Of a DNA stretch of 64,000 nucleotides, positions 7,701 to 53,063 are shown in pieces; the first letter of the stretch is position 1; each line of letters begins with the position of its first letter. A program made the translations under genes and the position numbers. Source of the stretch: Escherichia coli (GTDB taxonomy: Bacteria; Pseudomonadota; Gammaproteobacteria; Enterobacterales; Enterobacteriaceae); assembly GCF_003790525.1 (NCBI RefSeq), contig NZ_CP033635.1. One strand, 5' to 3'. The notes beneath the pieces were generated by a model. That model did not search any database and was not told where the DNA came from. It saw only the letters and a program-made list of their open reading frames with translations.

Positions 7701-9702
7701 CCGCCAGTTCCACCGCCACCGGGTTTAAGTCCACGCCGAAAACGTTGTTGTCGGCAATGTACATTTTCACCCGCTGTAACTCCTGGGTGTAACGATCCTG
7801 CGGAATACGGCGACCTTCCGCCTGCTGCTTGTGGAACAGATACGCTTCCGCCAGCTGGTTGATGGCTTCGTTAAGGAACGCCGCGCTGCCCATCGCCGGT
7901 TCGCACACGGTGAGGTTTAAGATGGCATCAGCTTTAGCGTGCAGATCGGTAATCGGATCAATTTGCTCTTTAAACAGTTCTTTCAGGGCATATTTAACCA
8001 GTGAGCGGGTCAGCACTTCCGGGGTGTAATAAGAGGCAGATTTCTCACGGTCGCGCCCGGCCATACGGTAGATAAAACTGCCTTTGCGGTGAATGCGCAG
8101 ACTGCCGTCTTTCTCGTAGACCTTCTCGTCTTCGTGGTATTTGCCAATCTCATCCTTACTGACGAAGTAACCCGTCTCCAGCTCGTTAAACTCTTCCCCG
8201 GCTTTCTTCACCTCGTAGAGATCTTCGCTGGCGAAGAATCCGCGATAGGAGAGCAGCGCCTCATACACCGCACCCAACTGGTTGATACCCAACTGGCGAT
8301 AAGAAATACGTCCGCGGCGGTTAAAGCGCCCTTTGCCCGGGCGGCTTAACGACATCGCCTGGATAATCTGTTGCAGGGTTTCGTTACGGAATACCACGCG
8401 GTTAAGAATGCGCGTGTTGTTGGCATCAAACAGATGACTTTCCAGACGCGGGACGCTGAACTGATGACTATGGATGGTGATCCGGTCGCCGCTCTCCAGG
8501 TCACTCTGCATTTTCACGCCGCCGTTGTAGCCTTCGCGCACCAGTTTAAACAGCATATTCAGGCTGTCGTGGAAGTAGCGCCCGTTGCGATCTTCTTCGC
8601 TGGTCAGCGGGATCATCTCCAGATCGCGCAACGTTTCCAGGCTGTAACCTTGCAGATAGGTTTTGGCTGTCATTGGCGCATAACCCAGCTCCGGGCGCGC
8701 TTCAATGTAGAACAGGAACAGCAGGCGGTACATGTAACGCAGACATTCGCGGCTCAGTTCATCCGGGTCCACCGCACGGTTACCGGTATAGTTTGCCAGG
8801 CCACGGTCGATCAGATAATGCATCGCTTCGTTGCCCAACAACTCTATGCTTTCGCGCAGGGCATATTTCAGATCTTCCGAAACACCAAACGCATGTTTGT
8901 GCGAATTGTCATCCAGCGAGTCAAGATATGGTGCCCCACTGCCCGGCAGCAGCGAATCTTTATGTAGCAACACTGCCGTCGCTTTCAGCGTATCCGTTTC
9001 ACGACGACTTAAAATCTCTTCAAAATCAAAACGTAGCAGACGGTTTTGCGCCCACTTAGTACGGTCCAACAACAATAGCTGACGGTTACCGAGCAGCAGC
9101 ACAAAACGCGGCGGTTCATTTTGGGTGAAGACCGCCGTAGAGAGCAGATCCTGCCAGCTGCGATATTCACCGTTGGCTTTTTTGCGCAGGCTGTCGCGCT
9201 TATGTTTGTCGGTATCCGCCGGGAATTGCGCGGTCAGTAAGGAGAGCGCCAGCGGATCCAGCGTTCCTTCTTCCTGATCGTGTGCTTCAACAATCCACAG
9301 CCACGGGCTACCGTCAGTGCTGTTGTAACGCGCCAGTACTGGCAGTGGTGTATCGTCATCCAGCATTTGGATCTGCGGCGTAATTTCGTAGCCCAGCGCC
9401 TTTAACAATGGCTGCCAGCGATTACGTTGATCGGCCAGACGCTGCGGGATCTGACGCTGTTTTTCGTGCTCGGCAAGTTTGCGGAAAAACTCAGTCGCCA
9501 GACTGTTAAACTGGTTCCACGGAGCGCGGTATCCCGGCTCTACGTCTTTGCCCTGTTCACGAGCGGCACGCTCCGCTTCACGCGCTGCATTTTCCTGGGC
9601 TATCCAGGGTTCCAGCACATCGCGGATATCACTGGTGAATACCTCACCCAAATAGTGGTTAGAGTAAAATTCGTTTTCGTTATTAATACCGACCAGCGCC
9701 AT
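4780..9702 (-). CDS. drmMI: N6-adenine DNA methyltransferase, PglX/type IIG-like (DrmMI-like)
   Basis: 1640 aa ORF with an AdoMet-binding-like motif (CEPAMGSAAFLNEA), the PglX-type motif GVDLNPVAVELAEVSLWLN and the catalytic motif LGNPPW. Start lies 2 nt after the upstream SNF2 stop, suggesting translational coupling. Confidence 0.7.
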   Translation of the reverse strand: MALVGINNENEFYSNHYLGEVFTSDIRDVLEPWIAQENAAREAERAAREQGKDVEPGYRAPWNQFNSLATEFFRKLAEHEKQRQIPQRLADQRNRWQPLLKALGYEITPQIQMLDDDTPLPVLARYNSTDGSPWLWIVEAHDQEEGTLDPLALSLLTAQFPADTDKHKRDSLRKKANGEYRSWQDLLSTAVFTQNEPPRFVLLLGNRQLLLLDRTKWAQNRLLRFDFEEILSRRETDTLKATAVLLHKDSLLPGSGAPYLDSLDDNSHKHAFGVSEDLKYALRESIELLGNEAMHYLIDRGLANYTGNRAVDPDELSRECLRYMYRLLFLFYIEARPELGYAPMTAKTYLQGYSLETLRDLEMIPLTSEEDRNGRYFHDSLNMLFKLVREGYNGGVKMQSDLESGDRITIHSHQFSVPRLESHLFDANNTRILNRVVFRNETLQQIIQAMSLSRPGKGRFNRRGRISYRQLGINQLGAVYEALLSYRGFFASEDLYEVKKAGEEFNELETGYFVSKDEIGKYHEDEKVYEKDGSLRIHRKGSFIYRMAGRDREKSASYYTPEVLTRSLVKYALKELFKEQIDPITDLHAKADAILNLTVCEPAMGSAAFLNEAINQLAEAYLFHKQQAEGRRIPQDRYTQELQRVKMYIADNNVFGVDLNPVAVELAEVSLWLNAISGDAFVPWFGYQLHCGNSLVGARRQVFNKSELTYKKAKDPSWLNSEPVELAMNTPREETQIFHFLLPDGGMANYSDKTVKQRYPDDFKALDSWRKEFIKSFAGHEIADVQRISEKVEALWNTYRQQLKAERLKTADSYPVWPAENSEQTRSSLSSKDETFSGRLEDNSAYQKLRWVMDYWCALWFWPIDKADELPDRGTWLFEIETLLDGIVITEKVTEVAEHTTGDLFAEEGLLREESSLFSGAGRLKTEVLFRHLPRLAIVDALRKQYRFFHWDLEFCDLFAERGGFDLMLGNPPWLKVVWEERGILGDYKPELVLHNLSAANISSLREESFARVYGLEDAWRSEFESAVGLQNYLNSQQNFSCLLGQKTNLYKCFLPVSWRLISEHGVSGLLHPDGVYDDSKAGELRAKIYCRLRDHYQFQNELGLFPDVHHATTFSINIYGPLQESPSFTHMSNLFSVYTIDSSILHDNQGEIPGIKEESYNGDKLKINWNISPHKSRVLTITIDELRLFAGIFDDNSTPALHARLPALHTVQLLEVLRKFDVKSKKLSSIKNNYYSTVMFDETFAQRDGTTKRKTEFPSGISQWILSGPHFFVGNAYYKTPRTLCKLNSDYDSIDLMTIPDNYMPRVNYIPNCEYSDFLNRIPTVSWDGNVFPVTNGYRFVNREMIGSTSERTFIATIIPPGISHINTCLSTIFKHDYDLLDFFSMSLSIVVDYRVKCTGMGHANQSLVNQLPLLSNEKFRASLHARSMALVSITEHYKKLWCSIYSSEFKIQYWSRDLPQLPQDFFTNLTPEWQRNCALRSDYSRRQALVEIDVLVAQALGLTLEELLAIYRIQFPVMRQYEADTWYDQNGRIIFTPSKGLVGVGLPRTARKADLKNGFVFNVDSPDWTGGDCTDQAIGWDDVKHLQTGTVSVTFDDYTRSDEGERRTVTWQAPFIKPDREDDYKVAWAFFAQDKESA

Positions 9703-41500: not shown

Positions 41501-41622
41501 AAGCCTGTTGATGTGGGTTGAGTCAGGTTGACTTCAGTTGAGAAGAAAAGCTGGAAAAGCCTTGCGTGGCGCGGATTTCAGGCATAAAAAAAGACCTCAG
41601 TTGAGGTCTATTTACATACTTT

Positions 41623-41645
41623 TGGTGCGAAGGCCGGACTCAAAC
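41623..41645. repeat. Degenerate copy of the leuX 3' end (att remnant / tandem-island junction)
   Basis: tggtgcgaaggccggactcaaac matches the leuX 3' end tggtgccgaaggccggactcgaac at 52979-53002 except for one deletion and one substitution. Confidence 0.6.
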
Positions 41646-41847
41646 ATCAAAATAAGTTAATGATAAAAAACAAATAATAAAACACAACAATGAAATATGC
41701 CCCCTTTTGTGCCCCCACTGTTTTTCTGACCAATCTATTTTCAGCCCATCAATAAATCGGAAAGTTAAATCATTTTTAATCAGTAAGTTTGGATCCGTAG
41801 CTCGGCTCCAAACCAGTGCATCTTTTATCCACATAAAAAATTTTTTT

Positions 41848-42135
41848 TCGAAAGAACTGTTCACACTGTTCACCTTTCTGTTTTCTCCTTTTATTTCATA
41901 GTGATAGGTGGTGAATAATGGGTGAAGGGTGAACATTCGATTCTTCACCTCCGGCATTCTGCCGGTGTGACTTGTGCAGGGGATTAATTTCCCGTGCTGA
42001 AATCACACCGGAAGAAAAAAGTTTTTTTTGATTTGATTGTTCACACTGTTCACCTTTCGTTTTTCTCTTTTAATTTCAGTGTGATAACGGGTGAATATAC
42101 GGTGAAGGGTGAACAGTGGATTGTTCACCTTCGGG
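41848..42135. repeat. P4 crr-like cis-replication region: two roughly 110-bp direct repeats carrying TGTTCACC iterons
   Basis: Near-identical units at about 41848-41950 and 42020-42135 separated by about 70 bp. Each contains TGTTCAC(A/C)CTGTTCACC and inverted GGTGAA copies. Confidence 0.6.
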
Positions 42136-42146
42136 GAATTCAGGGA

Positions 42147-42172
42147 TAAAAAAAGACCGGCAGATGCCGGTC
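42147..42172 (-). terminator. Intrinsic terminator downstream of the alpha gene
   Basis: GACCGGCA..TGCCGGTC hairpin followed on the minus strand by a T7 run, a few nt after the alpha stop. Confidence 0.55.
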
Positions 42173-42179
42173 AGGTGGG

Positions 42180-44513
42180 TCAGGCTGTTGCAGGGTCGTC
42201 ACATTTTGGCAGCCAGTCGCCGTAGCTTTCCTCTTTCAGCGTCAGGTTGGTCTGTATCCCCTGTTTGGTATGGCGCTTCTCGTAATTCAGTCCGTATTCC
42301 TTCAGCATCACCGGCAGCCCCAGCCCGAACATTTTCAGACTGAGTACATTCCGGTAGCCGTTTGCCTCCATGTAGGCCAGATAGGCGTGATAGAGGTATT
42401 TACGGTAATTGCGCGGGATGATACTGGCGTTCCCCATATACATGCCGCTGGTCTGCGGCAGGGTTTCCAGATAGCCGATAAAATCAAACGTCGGGTCGGC
42501 ATCCCGTTTGATGTTCAGTGCCTCGTCTGAGTTCTGCTGGGACTGAAGCAGTGACCGGGCGAGCATCGGGTCGCTGAACTTCTGCATCAGGTGACGCACG
42601 ATGACCGCCAGCTCGCGGGTGATTTTGTCCTTAAGCTGCGGGTCGCGCTCCTGCGGGGCTATCTGTTCCGGGAAGTGAATAATCACCCGCCGGCGTGACA
42701 CGCCGCCGCTGCGGTCGGTGAAGCGCATCGGGTTATTGTTCACGGCCAGAATTACCGCCGGGATATGCGTGGAGTATGCATCCCGGTATTTCGGGTCAAC
42801 GGACACCGCATCGCCGCCGGTGATGGCCTTGAGTCCGGCACCGTCGCCGCTCCATTTTTCCTGGTCCGGCAGGCGTATCAGTGAGAAGCCAGTTAACGCG
42901 GCACGTTCACGCGGGGATTCCAGCGTCTCGATGGTGGCCGACGTGGCGTTATCCTCCCCGGCCAGCAGGGTGGCTATTTCGGCCATGATACTTTTGCCGC
43001 TGCCGCCGGGACCGGTCACCTCCAGAAAGAGCTGCCAGTCGTAGCGGTTTGCCAGCACCATAAACAGTGCGGCCAGAATCACGTCGCGTTTTTCCGCACG
43101 GCCACCGGCGGCACGGTCAAGCCAGCACCAGAACGCGGGGGCGTGGGTCTCCAGCGTTTCACCGTCCACCGGCGGGGTGAAATCCACATCGCACAGGGTG
43201 CGCATCCAGTGTGACGGACTGTGCGGGTGGAACGTGCCGTTCTGCGTGTCGAGCACGCCGTTACGAAAGCCAATCAGGCGGCGGGAGGGGGCTTCCTGCT
43301 GCGGAATAATCAGCTTCAGGGTGTCCACCACGGAGGCCACCTTCCCGGAGGAGAACGGCGCGCGCAGACGCTGAAACAGCCCGGCCACATCCCGGGCAAA
43401 GTCCTGTGGTGGCAGCACCTTCCAGACACCATTTTCATAACGGGACAGAAGCTGGCCGTTGGCATCGACCGCGAGCGCCTCGCCGTAATGCTCATAGATA
43501 CGCATGGCCTTTTCGCTGGTACTCATGGCGGAAAACTCCGCTTCACTCATGGTGTCGAACGGGCTTTCAGCCGGTGGCCGGATGGCATCGTAAATGGCCT
43601 TACGGGTGGCCTCCCCGCCGTACTGCGTGAAGGCATCATTCCAGTCACCGAAGACCGGTGGCAGGGCAACAACACCTTCACACGCATCTGCGGCTGCGGC
43701 GGCTTTTTTCTGGCCATCACCGCTGAGGTCACGGTCAGCGGCAAGGACAATCTGACAGGCGGGGTGCTTCTGCCGGGCAAGGCTGGCCAGAGAAAGGAGG
43801 TTCACGGAAGAAAGCGCCACCATCACCGTTTCACCGGTCAGGTGATGCACGGTAAGTGCGGTCGCGTATCCCTCCGCTATCCACAGACGTTTTCCGGCCT
43901 GATTCTGTCCTTCAAGGATGTGACAGGTGCCCCTGACCTGTCCGCCTTTCAGGGTGCGCTTACGGCCGTCAGCACTGATTAACTGAAGGTTAACCAGTTC
44001 GCCGCTGTCGTCATACAGTGGCACCACAAGGTCACCGGCGCGCCAGCTCACGCCACCGGCTCTGTGTGTGCCGGTCAGCATCCGGCATTCCCGGCCGGGA
44101 AAGCCCTTGCGGGTCAGGTAGGCGTTACCGGTTCCGGGACGGGTTTTCGCCATCAGGGTTTGTGCCAGTGCGGCGGCGTTCTTCCGGGCAGCGTCTGTTT
44201 CAGCACCGGCGGCAGCCGTCACTGCCGGGTCAGCCGGGGGCAGGCTGCCGGTCACGGCAGCCACCTTTGTGGCCGCGTCGGACGGGGAGACACCAAACAC
44301 CTTTTCAACCAGTTTCAGGCCGTCACCGGCACCACACTGATTGCAGTACCAGGTGCCGCGCCCCTCCCTGTCATCAAAACGGAAGCGGTCACTCCCGCCA
44401 CAGACCGGACAGGGCTGATGACGGTTCTTCAGCACCTGAATCCCCAGCGCCGGGAGAATACGCGGCCAGTGGCCGAGCGCATGGCTGACGGTGGCGGTTA
44501 CGTTCATTTTCAT
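42180..44513 (-). CDS. alpha: P4 alpha-like primase-helicase
   Basis: 777 aa ORF with an N-terminal zinc-binding primase motif (CPVCGGSDRF...YCNQCGAGDG), next to the TGTTCACC iteron clusters. Confidence 0.8.
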   Translation of the reverse strand: MKMNVTATVSHALGHWPRILPALGIQVLKNRHQPCPVCGGSDRFRFDDREGRGTWYCNQCGAGDGLKLVEKVFGVSPSDAATKVAAVTGSLPPADPAVTAAAGAETDAARKNAAALAQTLMAKTRPGTGNAYLTRKGFPGRECRMLTGTHRAGGVSWRAGDLVVPLYDDSGELVNLQLISADGRKRTLKGGQVRGTCHILEGQNQAGKRLWIAEGYATALTVHHLTGETVMVALSSVNLLSLASLARQKHPACQIVLAADRDLSGDGQKKAAAAADACEGVVALPPVFGDWNDAFTQYGGEATRKAIYDAIRPPAESPFDTMSEAEFSAMSTSEKAMRIYEHYGEALAVDANGQLLSRYENGVWKVLPPQDFARDVAGLFQRLRAPFSSGKVASVVDTLKLIIPQQEAPSRRLIGFRNGVLDTQNGTFHPHSPSHWMRTLCDVDFTPPVDGETLETHAPAFWCWLDRAAGGRAEKRDVILAALFMVLANRYDWQLFLEVTGPGGSGKSIMAEIATLLAGEDNATSATIETLESPRERAALTGFSLIRLPDQEKWSGDGAGLKAITGGDAVSVDPKYRDAYSTHIPAVILAVNNNPMRFTDRSGGVSRRRVIIHFPEQIAPQERDPQLKDKITRELAVIVRHLMQKFSDPMLARSLLQSQQNSDEALNIKRDADPTFDFIGYLETLPQTSGMYMGNASIIPRNYRKYLYHAYLAYMEANGYRNVLSLKMFGLGLPVMLKEYGLNYEKRHTKQGIQTNLTLKEESYGDWLPKCDDPATA

Positions 44514-44527
44514 GGTGTTGTTCTCCT

Positions 44528-44848
44528 TCAGTGCAGTACCGGCGCTTTTATGTGACGGGCACAGAGTTCATCCATCACAACCAGCCCGAGAAAGGACAGC
44601 GACGGCGCGGCCTTCAGGGGGCCGGATTCCATTAAATCTTCCAGCAGGGCACAGGCTATCTGACGCCCTTTTTCCTCACCGTGCTGGCGCAGATAAAAGC
44701 CTTCCAGCTCAGCGGCGATGGCCGCCTCCAGTGACTCAAGGGTGAGATGCGGGTAGCGGTGCTGACGTTCGCACACGGTCAGCCAGGCACAGGCGACAGC
44801 GCGACGGTAAAGGGCAGCGCGTAAGACGGGCGGTAAGGGTGTTTTCAT
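44528..44848 (-). CDS. Small P4-type protein (orf106/Cnr-like), function uncertain
   Basis: 106 aa ORF immediately upstream of alpha in the same operon. Confidence 0.45.
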
Positions 44849-44983: not shown

Positions 44984-45439
44984 TTACAGATAATTGCGGT
45001 AACTGTTATCCGGGGTGATTTCCGGGTCAGGCTCCGTGCGGGGAATTTCCCGCCATTCCCGCGCCACCGGTGCCGCCCGGCTGACCGGAACAGTGTCCTG
45101 CGGGTAAATATCCAGATATTTCTCCCGCCATTTCTGTAATTCCGGGTCTCCGGCCATTTCTTTCAGTACCGCATGCCGGTTTACGGGGCTGCGTTTGAAC
45201 AGGTCAGGACGGTCACAGGTAAATTCCCGCAGAAAACGCCCCAGCGGGATGTCTGTGGTGCGCCCGTCGGCGAGGATACGCACAAGGATACTGAATTTAC
45301 GGCGGTACGGGTTCCAGACAATGTCCGGGCAGCGGTACGGCATTTCCCACGGAATACCGTCTTCCAGAATGCCGACCACGGCCACATCGGGAAAACCGGC
45401 AGAACGGTAAATCTCACCGGGCTGGGGAAAATCAAACAT
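44984..45439 (-). CDS. P4 orf151-like protein
   Basis: 151 aa ORF in the epsilon-alpha operon position. Confidence 0.45.
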   Translation of the reverse strand: MFDFPQPGEIYRSAGFPDVAVVGILEDGIPWEMPYRCPDIVWNPYRRKFSILVRILADGRTTDIPLGRFLREFTCDRPDLFKRSPVNRHAVLKEMAGDPELQKWREKYLDIYPQDTVPVSRAAPVAREWREIPRTEPDPEITPDNSYRNYL

Positions 45440-45719
45440 GCGTCCTGTCTCCCCGGTCTTTCTGCTGGGCGAGAAAATCGCGGCACAGGCCTTTGGCTTT
45501 CAGCTCATTCAGCACAAAATCAATATCTTCATTCAGGTAGCTGAAAATATGCGGAATGTAGAGCTGATGCAGGCCGGAGAGTTCACGGTGAATCAAATCA
45601 CCCCCAACAAACTGGGATACGGCGCTGGCGCGGTTGAGCTTATGGTAAGCCTCAATGCTGAGGTGTTCACGGGCGTCATGACGCGCTGAGACGGTCTGAG
45701 GGGCTTTTTTATTACGCAC
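45432..45719 (-). CDS. P4 epsilon-like small protein (putative GTG start)
   Basis: 95-codon frame beginning at a GTG at 45719..45717 ([20 protein letters not shown]...). The longer track ORF 45432-45959 has an implausible N-terminal extension. Confidence 0.35.
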
Positions 45720-46298
45720 GGGACACCTCCACCACCGGCAGACGGGCAGCAAGGGAGAGCACATAGTCACGGACAAGGGAACGGCGGGCGCTGCGTTCAT
45801 CACCGGCGACGGTGCGAAGCATGCAGATACGGGGATGACGGTCTGCGCGACGGACAGCCGCAAACACAAAGACAAATTCAGGGTGTGAGGGGGTAAGGGT
45901 TGTAGCCATAAGGCAGCCTCCTTCGAGTAGCAAATAACTGCTATCGCCGGAGTTCTCACGCTCGATGGCGATAGCCCAGACGGGGGTGAGAATACCGGCC
46001 TCGAAGAATACCGGCCAGCCCGGAGGCTGCCCCGCCTGAGCTACCATTGACTCAGTGGCATAACATGCGATTGCGAACAGGATAATACCTGCACGGCAAA
46101 CCACACGCCACACCATAATCTGGCGCTCTGTGGCGTTGATTGCGACACAAAAAAAGACGCATGGCGCGTCATATGTCGCCTTCGAGTTACACGGGTTCTC
46201 ACGCCCGGCTGCCGATTTTGCGGCAACGGAAAGACTATATCCGCAAATGCCGGAAAAAGGCAAGCCAGAAAAAGGGAGTTTTTGCAGAGCGGGCATCA

Positions 46299-46565
46299 TC
46301 ATGCGTCATACCCCCGTTTGCGTCCGGCAATGCGGCCGGCCATCCATGCGGTGACTTCAGAGTGCAGCCAGGCCACATTTTTACCGCCAAGACTCACCTG
46401 CGGCGGAAATTCCCCCTTACGGATGAGTTCGTAGATGGTCGAGCGTGACAGGCCGCACAGGTGCATCACTTCCGGAAGACGCAAAAAACGCTCCTGTGTG
46501 ATGTCCGGCTGCGGCATCAGTGGCGTCACAGGGGCGGGAGACGGGGAAGAAAAAACAGCTTGCAT
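46299..46565 (-). CDS. vis: Vis/AlpA-family small DNA-binding regulator
   Basis: 88 aa ORF with an AlpA-type HTH ([26 protein letters not shown]), at the head of the leftward operon. Confidence 0.6.
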
Positions 46566-46844
46566 CGGGCTACCTCGTTAATGTCCATACAGCACCGGAT
46601 AAGTCTGTCCGGCTTCGGGTAGCGCTTTATTTTGTGAATATTTTCAGCAGACGCAACAGGGGGGATTTGTTCCGGCAGCCTTACAATGCTTGTGTGTTTT
46701 TTGTTCATCTCCACTTAAAGTCATTTAAAGCCACTTAAAGCAATTCGTAATTTTTATAGTGAAATACAAATCGTTTTTTCTTATTCATTCCCGGCGAATT
46801 AATAAAAACAAACAGTAGTAAACAGCACAAAAAGCCCATCAACG

Positions 46845-46948: not shown

Positions 46949-47117
46949 GTAAAATATAAAAAAACAAACAGTAAGACGGTTTTTCCTGCGACCTTTTCCT
47001 GGCTTGCCGGTGTGAGGATGAGTCTCCTGTGTCAGGGCTGGCACATCTGCAATGCGTCGTGTTGTTGTCCGGTGTACGTCACAATTTTCTTAACCTGAAG
47101 TGACGAGGAGCCGGAAA

Positions 47118-49368: not shown

Positions 49369-51501
49369 ATGCTTTCTACTCAGGATATAAACGGTTTTTT
49401 TAATGCTGTTGACTCTCTCAAAAGGTTTAAACGAGCAGAAATAAGGGACAACAAAGATAAACCACTTATTGATTCACTTTACACAGATCTATTGCCAAAC
49501 AATCACGTCTTCAAAATGTGCTACGGGGAAAACACTACATTTTTAATTGGAAGAAAAGGCACAGGAAAATCCACAATAATTCTTAAACTTGAAAGTGAGT
49601 ACAGAAAAGAATCTTCATACCTCCCATGCTATATAGATACAAAAACAGTATTCGAAAGTGTTAGAGGTGAGTATCAAAAAATAGACTACCTAAAAGGGAA
49701 GATACCTGAAGAGCATCTAGAAAAATATTTAGTCGAGCGTGCATTCATTAAAAACATCTTGAAATCAATCGGTGACGAATTGAATATTCGAGCAGAAAGC
49801 ATATTCTCAAAACTAGCAGGGATTGTTAATGCAAGCAAAAAACAAGCGGTAAAAGCAAAAATAACAAAACTACTTTTAATGGTGGACAATAACCAAATAA
49901 TAAAAGAAATTGAAATACCCGTAATAACAGAAGTAAATACTAAACTTACTAAGGCGAACGAATCAGAAAATGGAACTACCCAAAACTATAACTCTGAGCT
50001 AACTGTAAAAATCGGAACATCACAACATGAAGGTGGTGGAAAAATAGGAGCGGTAAAAGGAATCACCTCAAGACAGAAAAACAATGACGCTTGGGAAAAG
50101 AGTTTCTCTACAGCCCTTCTAAAGGTTTTTCAAATCACATCAGTAATTGAAGAAATTAAAATCATATTAAGAGAGCTAGGAGTAAAAAAGCTTGTAATAT
50201 TTTTAGACGATTTCTCTGAAGTTGAAGAGAAGACGCTAAAAAACTTCGTCGATGTTGTACTTGCTCCGCTAAATAACTGGGCTAATGATTTCATTTGTTT
50301 TAAAGTCGCTGCCTACCCAAGTCGCATATATTATGGCGACATTGATGTTGGCAAAATAGATGTGGTAAATTTAGATTTTTATAATTTATATTCTAATTAT
50401 GATAAATCTACGATGGAATCCTTATCAGCTGACTTCACCAAGAGACTTTTAAATCAAAGGCTTAATCAGTTTTGCACATTGAAGTTTGAAGATTATTTTG
50501 ATACATCTTCAGCTACTCCAGAAGAGTACTATGATCTTATATTTAAAGTATCCATGAATGTCCCTAGAATTATAGGATACATTCTTTATTACTGCCATCA
50601 AACCAATGTATCTCTTGGCAGAAAAATAAATAAAGGCTCAATCGAGAAAGCAGCTCAGACTTATTATGAGCAAGTTGTATCTAAGTTTTTCGATATTGCC
50701 ACGCATAGTCTGATGTCTTTCAGTGAAAAAGTTTCTGAACTTCAGCAAAAAGAGATTCTAAATCTCTTCGTTCAGAAATTAAAAACGATTAAGCGACAAA
50801 TAATAACAAATGAACTAACTGGCACAATTTACAATAGAGACAGAACAAATCCTTATTGTAGTCATTTTTATTTTCAACCTAATCTTGAACATTTTCTGCG
50901 TACATTGGAGCTTAATTTCTTCATTACCAAATATAATGAATTAGTAAATAAAGACGGAAACAAGGTCTCGATATATGGAATAAATTATGGATTAGCTCGA
51001 AGTGAAAACCTCAAATGGGGAAAACCTGAAGGTAATCAGTTCCGTAGTTATTTCGTAGAAAGACCATTTGATTTCAACAAAGATATCGAAGATTTCTTAA
51101 GAGAATCGAAAAAAATCGTATGTCTTAATAGCTCTTGTGATAAAACCTATCCATATGAAGAACTTGCATTTCTTGAATATAATAAAATGAGATGTATTGA
51201 ATGCCAGTCGCCTGTTGAAGTAAGATCGTTTTCTGAAAGTATCAGTTCTGAAATATCTAAAATTGACAACGCTAAACTTTTACCAAAATTAGAATTAATG
51301 ATATTACATGAACTGAATAAGGCAGACGATCATCTCCTAGCTCGAGACATTGCTGAGGAACTAGACGCTTCATCACAATTAATTGCCAAACGGGCTGAAA
51401 AATTAGACAGAAAAGGTCTTGTTTTTAGAGATAAAAGTGATGCATTAATTAAGTATTCAATAACAAATAAAGCAGTAGAAGGTTATTTCTATGATGACTA
51501 A
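49369..51501 (+). CDS. Uncharacterised P-loop NTPase with C-terminal zinc ribbon and winged-helix-like domain; candidate anti-phage defence gene in the P4 psu-int hotspot
   Basis: 710 aa ORF, conspicuously AT-rich compared with flanking P4-like genes. Walker A LIGRKGTGKST, Walker B-like LVIFLDDFSEVEE, Cys4 cluster CLNSSCDKTYPYEELAFLEYNKMRCIECQSP, and a C-terminal wHTH-like segment. Confidence 0.6.
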   Translation: MLSTQDINGFFNAVDSLKRFKRAEIRDNKDKPLIDSLYTDLLPNNHVFKMCYGENTTFLIGRKGTGKSTIILKLESEYRKESSYLPCYIDTKTVFESVRGEYQKIDYLKGKIPEEHLEKYLVERAFIKNILKSIGDELNIRAESIFSKLAGIVNASKKQAVKAKITKLLLMVDNNQIIKEIEIPVITEVNTKLTKANESENGTTQNYNSELTVKIGTSQHEGGGKIGAVKGITSRQKNNDAWEKSFSTALLKVFQITSVIEEIKIILRELGVKKLVIFLDDFSEVEEKTLKNFVDVVLAPLNNWANDFICFKVAAYPSRIYYGDIDVGKIDVVNLDFYNLYSNYDKSTMESLSADFTKRLLNQRLNQFCTLKFEDYFDTSSATPEEYYDLIFKVSMNVPRIIGYILYYCHQTNVSLGRKINKGSIEKAAQTYYEQVVSKFFDIATHSLMSFSEKVSELQQKEILNLFVQKLKTIKRQIITNELTGTIYNRDRTNPYCSHFYFQPNLEHFLRTLELNFFITKYNELVNKDGNKVSIYGINYGLARSENLKWGKPEGNQFRSYFVERPFDFNKDIEDFLRESKKIVCLNSSCDKTYPYEELAFLEYNKMRCIECQSPVEVRSFSESISSEISKIDNAKLLPKLELMILHELNKADDHLLARDIAEELDASSQLIAKRAEKLDRKGLVFRDKSDALIKYSITNKAVEGYFYDD

Positions 51502-51561: not shown

Positions 51562-52815
51562 TTAGATCCTAGCAAAATCATAGGCCGTAATATTTTGATA
51601 TCGATTAATATCTAGATAGTCAGCCCACCATTGCATCATCAAACGACGCTCTTCTAAATGCTCTGAAGTATGAATATAAGCTGCGCGTACATTGTTACGT
51701 TCTGAATGGCTCAATTGACGTTCTATCGCATCATCACTCCATAGTCCCGATTCCCCCAACGCCCCGCGTGCCATAGTCCTAAAACCATGGCCACATACTT
51801 CTGTTTTTGTGTCATATCCCATTACACGCAATGCATTGTTTACCGTATTTTCACTCATAACCTTAGTTGCGTCATGATCGCCCGGGAAAAGAAAGTCTCT
51901 ATCACCACTAATCTGCTTAAGCTGTTCTAACAATATAATCGCCTGTCGGCTAAGCGGAACTATATGCTCCTCTTTCATTTTCATGCCACGATACGAGTAA
52001 CGTACGCCTTTAATTTCTTCTCGTTTAGCAGGAATACGCCAAGTAGCGTTATCAAAATCAAATTCTTTCCAACGAGCAAAACGTAATTCACTTGAACGAA
52101 CAAAAGTTAGTAAAGAAAGCTCAACCGCAATTTTCGTCATCATACGCCCACGATATACATCAAGACGTGCCAAGAACTCATGGAAACGATGTGATGGTAG
52201 CGCCGGGTAGTGCCGCGTTTTCGCCGTAGATAACGCACCGGCCATATCAATTGCAGGATTTGAGTCTACATAATCGTTCTGAACAGCATAGCGCATAATA
52301 GCAGTGACACGTTGCTGAAGACGCTGCGCTACATCATGCTTACCACTGGCATCAACTTTTTTTATCGGTGCCAAAAGGTGACTAGTTTTAAGCTGTCGAA
52401 TATCAGACGAGCCAATATAGGGAAAGATATAAAGCTCTAGATAGCGAAGAACCCGTGCCCGATGTTCCTCACTCCAACGCTTATTGCTGGCATGCCATTC
52501 ACGAGCAATAGTTTCAAAATTATAAGCACCAGCATTAACTGCTTGGGCCTCTTTCTGTACTGCTTTTGGATCTATACCTTGCACCAGCAACTTTTTGGCT
52601 TCATCCCTTCTAGCTCTAGCTTCAGCAAGCGTCACAGTCGGCCAAACACCAAAAGCAAGACGATCCTCTTTTTTGTCGGAAGGTCGTCTATATTTCATAC
52701 GCCAATATTTAGAGCCTTTGACAGAAACCTCGAGGTACAAACCGCCACCATCGGCCATTTTATAGGTTTTATCTTTTGGCTTTGCGGTCTCGACCTGTCT
52801 GGCGTTGAGCTTCAT
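51562..52815 (-). CDS. int: P4-type tyrosine integrase (IntB-like), intact
   Basis: MKLNARQVETAKPKDKTYKMADGGGLYLEV... with a complete C-terminal catalytic region (...HGFRTMARGAL..., ...HSERNNVRAAYIHT). Begins about 165 bp from the leuX 3' end, in the same orientation. Confidence 0.85.
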   Translation of the reverse strand: MKLNARQVETAKPKDKTYKMADGGGLYLEVSVKGSKYWRMKYRRPSDKKEDRLAFGVWPTVTLAEARARRDEAKKLLVQGIDPKAVQKEAQAVNAGAYNFETIAREWHASNKRWSEEHRARVLRYLELYIFPYIGSSDIRQLKTSHLLAPIKKVDASGKHDVAQRLQQRVTAIMRYAVQNDYVDSNPAIDMAGALSTAKTRHYPALPSHRFHEFLARLDVYRGRMMTKIAVELSLLTFVRSSELRFARWKEFDFDNATWRIPAKREEIKGVRYSYRGMKMKEEHIVPLSRQAIILLEQLKQISGDRDFLFPGDHDATKVMSENTVNNALRVMGYDTKTEVCGHGFRTMARGALGESGLWSDDAIERQLSHSERNNVRAAYIHTSEHLEERRLMMQWWADYLDINRYQNITAYDFARI

Positions 52816-52978
52816 TTGGGGGCACATCCCTAATCGAAGTTAAGATGCCCCCAATTATGCCCCCAATGACATCCGGATTTCAACGTACAACCTCGGACGA
52901 CTCGGGACGTTAAAATCACTGCAAGCATTGATTTTTAAGGAATTATTGGACTTTCTCGGATGGTCTAGGAAGTGCTTA

Positions 52979-53063
52979 TGGTGCCGAAGGCCGGACTCGA
53001 ACCGGCACGTATTTCTACGGTTGATTTTGAATCAACTGCGTCTACCGATTTCGCCACTTCGGC
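52979..53063 (-). tRNA. leuX: tRNA-Leu (anticodon CAA), leuX
   Basis: Reverse complement reads GCCGAAGTGGCGAAATCGGTAGACGCAGTTGATTCAAAATCAACCGTAGAAATACGTGCCGGTTCGAGTCCGGCCTTCGGCACCA, an 85-nt class II tRNA with CAA anticodon and encoded CCA. Confidence 0.9.

Follow-up and report, generated by a model that had tools for sequence, protein, structure and literature searches.

The interval 45720-46298 of a 64-kb window of Escherichia coli DNA (the whole stretch that was analysed; all coordinates are window positions, and (-) denotes the minus strand) very probably serves a P4-like satellite prophage as its immunity region. The same DNA would be used there in two ways: as RNA elements in transcripts from the promoter PLE, and as a translated frame in late transcripts. 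The mechanism is already known from P4, and the element in the window is a variant with an RNA specificity unlike that of P4. The homology to P4, the RNA families, the covariation of the pairing boxes, the conservation of the long reading frame, and the neutral evolution, at the protein level, of the N-terminal part of this frame (eta) are directly supported.

An earlier note on this DNA had placed the P4 immunity region here. This assignment is borne out by alignment: window positions 45400-46700 align end-to-end with positions 7856-9165 of phage P4 (NC_001609) at 95.2% identity. All features of the P4 immunity region that can be tested on the sequence were found, with the sole exception of a specificity equal to that of P4. 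The note had also regarded the interval as mainly RNA rather than protein-coding. This holds in part: the immunity RNA is present, but the only long open reading frame (ORF) can be identified as the homologue of P4 eta, its frame is conserved, and its last part, kil, is coding.

RNA elements and their target boxes

The whole window was scanned with the Rfam covariance models, with the gathering scores as the cut-off. The interval holds three matches above these scores, all on the minus strand: C4, isrK, and c4-a1b1 (Table 1). The C4 homologue in P4 is the CI RNA, and the IsrK homologue is seqA; CI, seqA, and seqC of P4 are described in the same papers (PMC3632133, PMC4825925). It is known that the P4 CI RNA is a substrate of RNase P (PMC5499578). 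The CI RNA locus, which the earlier note had considered possible, was found by this search, and seqC was recognized from the covariation described below.

The minimum-free-energy fold of CI is the same as the Rfam consensus, a 17-base-pair (bp) stem with two hairpins, at -48 kcal/mol and with a z value of -5.35. The P4 CI is 69 nucleotides (nt) long. By analogy with P4, the mature CI in the window probably extends from about 46041 to 45973 and has a 12-bp stem.

Upstream of seqA, a promoter scan predicted a sigma-70-type promoter, PLE, at 46263-46234. In an old P4 record (X02534), a "consensus -10" is marked at the place homologous to the PLE -10 hexamer. Transcription from PLE would start near 46227, where the isrK model begins. 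The helices of the leader RNA are kept in the 36 sequences examined (see below). The terminator t1 lies between PLE and cI; it is conserved with P4, and all 36 sequences retain its helix. The name t1 and its role in P4 are said to go back to Briani et al. in 2000.

Another hairpin, at 45940-45975, has a2 in the loop and the U-rich GUUAUUUG on its 3' side. Formation of this hairpin excludes that of the lower CI stem, the 3' strand of which it shares. It might correspond to the atypical terminator t4 of P4, or it might act as a processing or refolding element.

Two boxes of CI, b' and a', are complementary to both seqA (upstream) and seqC (downstream), with eight plus seven pairs at each of them. 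At seqC, the b2 box overlaps the Shine-Dalgarno sequence GGAGG of kil (45921-45917). Since PLE, t1, seqC over the ribosome-binding site of kil, and the 65-codon kil are all present, reading the interval as an RNA-based immunity region is right.

The differences between the window and P4 cluster at three short sites, which are mutually complementary within each element. At these b-box sites P4 has TTCACAGG, CCTGTGAA, and TTCACAGG, whereas the window has CTCGAAGG, (T)CTTCGAG, and CTCGAAGG. In other words, CUCGAAGG pairs with UCUUCGAG in the window, and UUCACAGG pairs with CCUGUGAA in P4. The b-box differs at four to five of the eight positions in all three copies, whereas the a-box is identical. 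The duplex energies of the loops were -11.3 to -11.8 kcal/mol for the cognate pairs and -1 to -6 kcal/mol for the non-cognate pairs; the window loop gave -11.5 kcal/mol in its cognate pair and -1.7 kcal/mol on the P4 b1 box, and the P4 loop on the window b1 box gave -4.2 kcal/mol. It should be mentioned that these are loop-only energies: calculations with whole segments open up the CI stems and separate cognate from non-cognate pairs poorly, though the diagonal was always best. Because the CI loop box is unlike that of P4 and both targets carry the matching changes, the window element is predicted to be heteroimmune to P4.

Relatives of the region were taken from two scans of viral contigs and one scan of species-representative genomes. 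They include loci from Escherichia, Klebsiella, Rahnella, Ewingella, Hafnia, Photorhabdus, Izhakiella, Erwinia, and others. The pairs were counted for a structure specified by us, in an alignment of 36 distinct sequences. Two groups were left out of the tallies: eight loci in unrelated phyla with 19-mer matches, which are without a CI-like fold and were rejected as chance matches, and the Ewingella locus L074, which has a shorter CI loop. Compensatory changes were observed in six of the eight pairs of b':b1 and likewise of b':b2, and in three of the seven pairs of a':a1 and of a':a2. This amounts to nine pairs for each target site, seqA and seqC. The box pairs are formed in 98-100% of the cells, with the partner slid by 1-3 columns in 27-46%. 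The survey thus gives an independent, purely comparative support for the pairing model of P4.

Among 74 CI-like loci there are 22 combinations, made up of at least 5 alleles of the a-box and 13 of the b-box, and one b allele is found with up to four a alleles. The type of the window element (a = GTGAGAA, b = CTCGAAGG) would be a common one. All four target boxes are fully complementary in 63 of the 72 loci having both flanks; in the control, where boxes were compared with flanks taken from a locus differing in type, full complementarity was found in 0 of 360 cases. The exceptions include L031, which has the seqA of another type, and L014 and L026, in which the CI boxes mismatch the targets. 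L031 is an apparent recombinant, and the a and b alleles appear to be reassorted by recombination in this way. L014 and L026 may be decaying elements; the eta frame of L014 is also broken.

C4/CI-type RNAs with matching a and b targets also precede genes that are not kil-like (a 95-aa ORF and a 33-aa ORF; aa, amino acids). Such loci are L078 and L081, from Escherichia sp. and an Enterobacteriaceae metagenome-assembled genome, and L063 and L044 from Photorhabdus. This may point to further roles of the RNA switch.

It seems to us an even question whether P4-like satellites across the Enterobacterales share a modular two-box RNA "immunity code", possibly with one heteroimmunity group per combination. 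Each allele is present three times, in CI, seqA, and seqC, and every copy would also have to remain free of stop codons in the eta frame. In the open literature that was searched, no survey was found of a modular two-box code in triplicate inside a translated frame, and this wider pattern may be uncatalogued so far. If the proposal is true, the loci would represent a large natural set of orthogonal antisense RNA/target pairs, and P4-like satellites could be typed by them and their coexistence or exclusion predicted. The covariation survey points to a catalogue of orthogonal RNA specificities, which might serve for satellite typing or for synthetic regulation.

The reading frame of eta and kil

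Between epsilon and vis there is one long ORF of 196 aa, as the earlier note had stated, and no other ORF of more than about 100 aa on the coding strand. The note had named kil and eta as small genes encoded by this interval in P4. kil is indeed present, but eta is not small: it is the long ORF itself. The view that this ORF has no credible start context did not hold. The ATG of eta (46302-46300) overlaps the TGA stop codon of vis (46301-46299) as ATGA (46302-46299), and a GGGGG run ends 8 nt upstream of it. The ATG of kil, at 45909, has CTCGAAGGAGG 8 nt before it, with AGGAGG as the Shine-Dalgarno sequence.

In P4, a constitutive promoter is internal to eta, and Kil is a truncated Eta (Forti et al. 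1999, summarised in PMC10111431). Full-length eta of P4 is translated only from the upstream late promoter, in translational coupling with the alpA homologue, and this translation prevents termination (PMC10111431). The ORF in the window fits each of these points, which is in line with its identification as the eta homologue.

The two parts of the ORF are different in character. Its C-terminal part (aa 143-190) matches the Icd-like cell-division inhibitor family of NCBIfam (NF033153) with 72.2 bits against a cut-off of 25. Residues 22-143 (45874-46239) match Pfam Phage_ASH (PF10554) with 77.6 bits against 26, and this part overlies the PLE start, seqA, t1, CI, and seqC. In RefSeq, the whole 196-aa ORF is given as "Icd-like protein", and no RNA feature is annotated. 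The odd composition pointed out in the earlier note is real in the first 131 codons, whereas the last 65 codons form a clean gene, kil. In the former, the GC contents of the three codon positions (GC1/GC2/GC3) are flat (0.56/0.51/0.58), and Cys and Trp together make up 7.6% of the residues, versus 1.1-4.7% in six neighbouring genes.

This composition could mean that the interval holds regulatory RNA and the small kil only, and that the ORF upstream of the kil ATG is accidental and never translated. The near-neutral evolution of this part, without codon periodicity (see below), is in line with such a reading. So is the fact that every nucleotide of the stretch already has an RNA or promoter role, and in a single lineage the frame might stay open by chance. 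The comparison of relatives, however, argues strongly for a frame that is kept. Upstream of the kil ATG, the eta frame has no stop codon in any of the 36 distinct sequences that keep the ATG overlapping vis, whereas the other two sense frames have on average 4.3 and 5.8 stops per sequence. Indels of 9 nt and 12 nt, a paired -1/+1, and a -1/-2 were observed; four of the five indel configurations keep the frame, which is lost only in L014 (net -2). Three diverged lineages keep the long frame although their starts differ; in one of them it begins with a separate AAGGAG-N7-ATG at a distance of 111 codons upstream of kil. The frame is absent, with about 10 stops, in exactly those loci in which the C4-type RNA is followed by a gene unlike kil; these loci are a natural control for the eta frame. 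The start overlapping the vis stop, and the published translation of P4 eta with its effect on termination, are also difficult to reconcile with an accidental ORF. On these grounds this explanation was rejected, and we regard it as very improbable.

Another possibility is that the N-terminal "Ash" domain is a folded polypeptide with a function of its own, and that the RNA matches are secondary. The Phage_ASH score, the annotation of the full ORF as a protein in RefSeq, and the conserved frame would agree with this. The pattern of substitutions, however, is not that of a functional polypeptide. The ratio of nonsynonymous to synonymous divergence (dN/dS) is 0.5-1.0 in the N-terminal 131 codons, compared with 0.07-0.33 in kil and 0.04-0.35 in vis and epsilon of the same genomes. 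Substitutions are spread evenly over the codon positions in the eta N-terminus (e.g. 28, 28, 28), whereas those in kil are biased to the third position (e.g. 5, 5, 32). The synonymous divergence of the eta N-terminus is 0.25-0.33, below that of kil (0.6-1.2); this depression can be read as the signature of constraint at the nucleotide level. Covariation of RNA pairs involves exactly the positions that vary, and P4 and the window differ by a frame shift over 10 codons that has no consequence. Furthermore, the Pfam family goes back to an abandoned annotation of old P4 records, a 137-aa "cI/ash protein" in the eta frame. A functional Ash polypeptide was rejected in view of the near-neutral dN/dS, the harmless frame shift, and the covariation of RNA pairs. 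It is likewise very improbable, if slightly less so than an accidental ORF.

Because dN/dS is 0.5-1.0 and codon periodicity is absent, the similarity to Phage_ASH is best ascribed to constraint on the nucleotides, that is, on RNA and promoter. The conservation of the family looks like this constraint seen through translation. The data fit an eta N-terminus in which translation matters and the peptide does not, as published for P4.

The result is mostly a corrected annotation. The stretch called "Icd-like protein" in RefSeq and "Ash" in Pfam combines a promoter, a leader carrying targets, and a terminator with an antisense RNA that would be processed, with another target across a ribosome-binding site, and with a frame that would be translated for translation's own sake. 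It is a compact and well-documented example of DNA that is read both as structured RNA and as an ORF. It warns that a conserved ORF with a Pfam match is no proof of a functional polypeptide, and also that an odd composition is no proof of a non-coding sequence.

Proposed regulation and related systems

Processing, termination, translational coupling, and phenotypes are described here by analogy with P4. Transcripts from PLE, which would be a constitutive promoter, would begin with the leader carrying a1 and b1, followed by t1, and would be terminated at t1 or else continue across cI. In the read-through RNA, a tRNA-like stem-loop would be processed into CI (in P4, by RNase P and a 3' exonuclease, PNPase). 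The b' and a' boxes of CI would then pair with a1/b1 in seqA and with a2/b2 in seqC. Pairing at seqA would lead to more termination at t1, which would limit the synthesis of CI itself; this is autoregulation, as in P4. Pairing at seqC would block the translation of kil, which would be the first gene translated from PLE transcripts. Transcription would end before epsilon and alpha, and the prophage would remain silent. In P4, the termination linked to seqC presumably takes place at t4 and at the Rho-dependent timm.

Transcripts from the late promoter would start upstream of vis. Ribosomes finishing vis would restart at the overlapping eta ATG and would cross PLE, seqA, t1, CI, and seqC into kil. 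Because translation of eta would cover all these sites, the late transcripts would be insensitive to CI. Selection on the first 131 codons would then act to keep the frame open and not on the peptide sequence.

Several points weigh against this picture. All of the following are carried over from P4: the ends of the mature CI, termination at t1, t4, and timm, and the translation of eta. The 69-nt length of CI and the names t1, t4, and timm follow secondary accounts of P4. The internal helices of CI do not vary among the 36 sequences, in part because the anchor of the search belongs to the stem, and their covariation therefore speaks neither for nor against them. When the observed substitutions are placed at random, the frame is left open with P of about 0.10-0.17 per lineage; the case for selection on the frame therefore rests on the lineages, the indels, the start context, and the literature combined.

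The window element shares with P4 the gene order vis, eta/kil, epsilon, orf151, orf106, alpha, the PLE hexamers, t1, the CI stem and hairpins, the a-box, and the overlap of the eta start with the vis stop; the Kil proteins (65 aa) are identical in sequence. It differs from P4 in the b-box allele of all three copies and, shortly before the kil ATG, in a pair of +1/-1 indels. It also has a 9-nt deletion in the spacer between t1 and CI, and eta has 196 codons, versus 199 in P4.

The P4-like retronphage phiR73 was reportedly described as heteroimmune to P4 by Sabbattini et al. in 1996 (Virology 216:389). The concept is the same here: a P4-like element in which the CI RNA and its targets give a specificity other than that of P4. 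The integration site of phiR73 is selC, and this phage carries a retron, whereas the window element is at leuX and has a gene of 710 aa in the variable hotspot.

The c4 RNA of P1 and P7, which controls icd-ant, belongs to the same RNA family and follows the same two-box logic (a'/b' versus a1b1/a2b2). Its downstream target also overlaps the ribosome-binding site of an Icd-like gene, the RNA is processed by RNase P, and its specificity shifts by compensatory changes of the boxes. The product regulated in P1 is an antirepressor, and repression there depends mainly on a protein. In the window element, by contrast, the RNA would, as judged from P4, be the only immunity factor, and the outcome would be premature termination of the replication operon. 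The locus in the window also differs in lying wholly inside the eta frame.

The leader at 46227-46150 fits the model of IsrK, known from Gifsy-1 of Salmonella, from end to end including the terminator, and P4 seqA has been described as a structural homologue of IsrK (PMC4825925). The roles are different: IsrK activates the translation of a downstream antiterminator mRNA in trans, whereas the leader in the window is a target of CI.

The prophage and its setting

Table 1. Positions of the RNA elements, pairing boxes, genes, and other features
Feature	Position	Strand	Details
PLE -35, TTGCCT	46258..46263	(-)	promoter scan; identical in P4
PLE -10, TATAGT	46234..46239	(-)	promoter scan; 18-nt spacer to -35; identical in P4
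c4-a1b1 targets (Rfam RF03163)	46240-46188	(-)	50.3 bits vs gathering 46.7; overlaps the isrK match
Leader RNA/seqA region (Rfam isrK, RF01394)	46227-46150	(-)	67 bits vs gathering 50; end-to-end, including terminator
Leader hairpin A	46227-46208	(-)
Leader hairpin B	46207-46192	(-)	a1 box in loop; followed by b1 and t1
a1 target box, GTGAGAA	46196..46202	(-)	complementary to CI a' TTCTCAC; 99.6% of cells paired
b1 target box, CTCGAAGG (seqA core)	46179..46186	(-)	complementary to CI loop TCTTCGAG; 98.3% paired
Intrinsic terminator t1, GACGCGCCATGCGTC then T7	46149..46170	(-)	terminator scan; 3' hairpin of isrK model
CI RNA (Rfam C4, RF01695)	46051-45964	(-)	74.3 bits vs gathering 45; model positions 1-87 of 87
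CI 17-bp stem	46046-46030 with 45985-45969	(-)
CI hairpin 1	46029-46016	(-)
CI hairpin 2	46015-45994	(-)
b' box, TCTTCGAG (seqB core)	46000..46007	(-)	in 12-nt loop of CI hairpin 2; specificity determinant
a' box, TTCTCAC	45986..45992	(-)	single-stranded CI linker; P4 allele identical
Hairpin GCTATCGCC...GGCGATAGC	45940..45975	(-)	9 pairs, invariant in 36 sequences
a2 target box, GTGAGAA (seqC region)	45953..45959	(-)	7 pairs with a'; 100% paired
b2 target box, CTCGAAGG	45927-45920	(-)	8 pairs with b'; 98.6% paired
eta homologue, 196 codons	45712..46302	(-)	in frame with kil; runs through PLE, seqA, t1, CI, seqC
kil, 65 codons and stop (MATTLTPSH...)	45712..45909	(-)	Icd-like; last 65 codons of eta; TAA stop 45714-45712
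alpha	42180-44513	(-)
orf106	44528-44848	(-)
orf151	44984-45439	(-)
epsilon (helper derepression protein)	45432-45719	(-)	Pfam Derepression, 170 bits; P4 annotation
vis (orf88; AlpA-family excisionase/regulator), 88 aa	46299-46565	(-)	Pfam Phage_AlpA, 74.2 bits; P4 annotation
Integrase	51562-52827		prophage gene
TGT-N12-ACA dyads	46668-46685, 47028-47045, 47066-47083		3 in 800 nt vs 0.2 expected

The P4-like prophage is 11.4 kb long and is seated at the tRNA-Leu(CAA) gene leuX (52982-53063). Its ends are formed by an 18-nt repeat (41628-41645 and 52985-53002) with 17 of 18 positions identical. The genes across 42-46.6 kb are all on the minus strand and are ordered as in P4. vis lies upstream of eta. 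epsilon, the first gene downstream, starts with a GTG at 45719 that is preceded by GGAGG, and overlaps the end of kil/eta. The sequence is at least 99% identical in 55 complete E. coli genomes. The prophage is also carried, at 99.8% identity, by E. coli Ec42 (NZ_CP059119). Related copies of the immunity region, roughly 1,200 in total, are present in 1,003 of 5,426 complete E. coli genomes, with up to four copies per genome.

A low-GC ORF of 710 aa (49369-51501, plus strand) is located in the variable hotspot between psu and int of P4. P4-like satellites carry anti-phage systems at this hotspot (PMC9122126). The ORF is given as a MarR family regulator in RefSeq. It shows weak P-loop matches at its N-terminus and a sub-threshold match to a MarR-type winged helix at its C-terminus, and a comparison with PADLOC gave no meaningful match to this ORF. 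This ORF may represent a defence system of a single gene, as yet unnamed.

Just inside attL there are two 120-nt direct repeats (41835-41954 and 42015-42134) that are 81% identical and resemble the crr region of P4. A 27-nt repeat is present at 41570-41596 and 42132-42158, with 89% identity. One copy of the latter is outside attL and could have been left behind when a P4-like element inserted at leuX earlier.

The three TGT-N12-ACA dyads (Table 1) are found where the Delta/Ogr-activated late promoters of P4 should be expected, namely PLL directed towards vis and Psid directed towards sid. The dyad at 46668-46685, which lies upstream of vis and precedes PLE by about 400 nt, might be the activator site of PLL.

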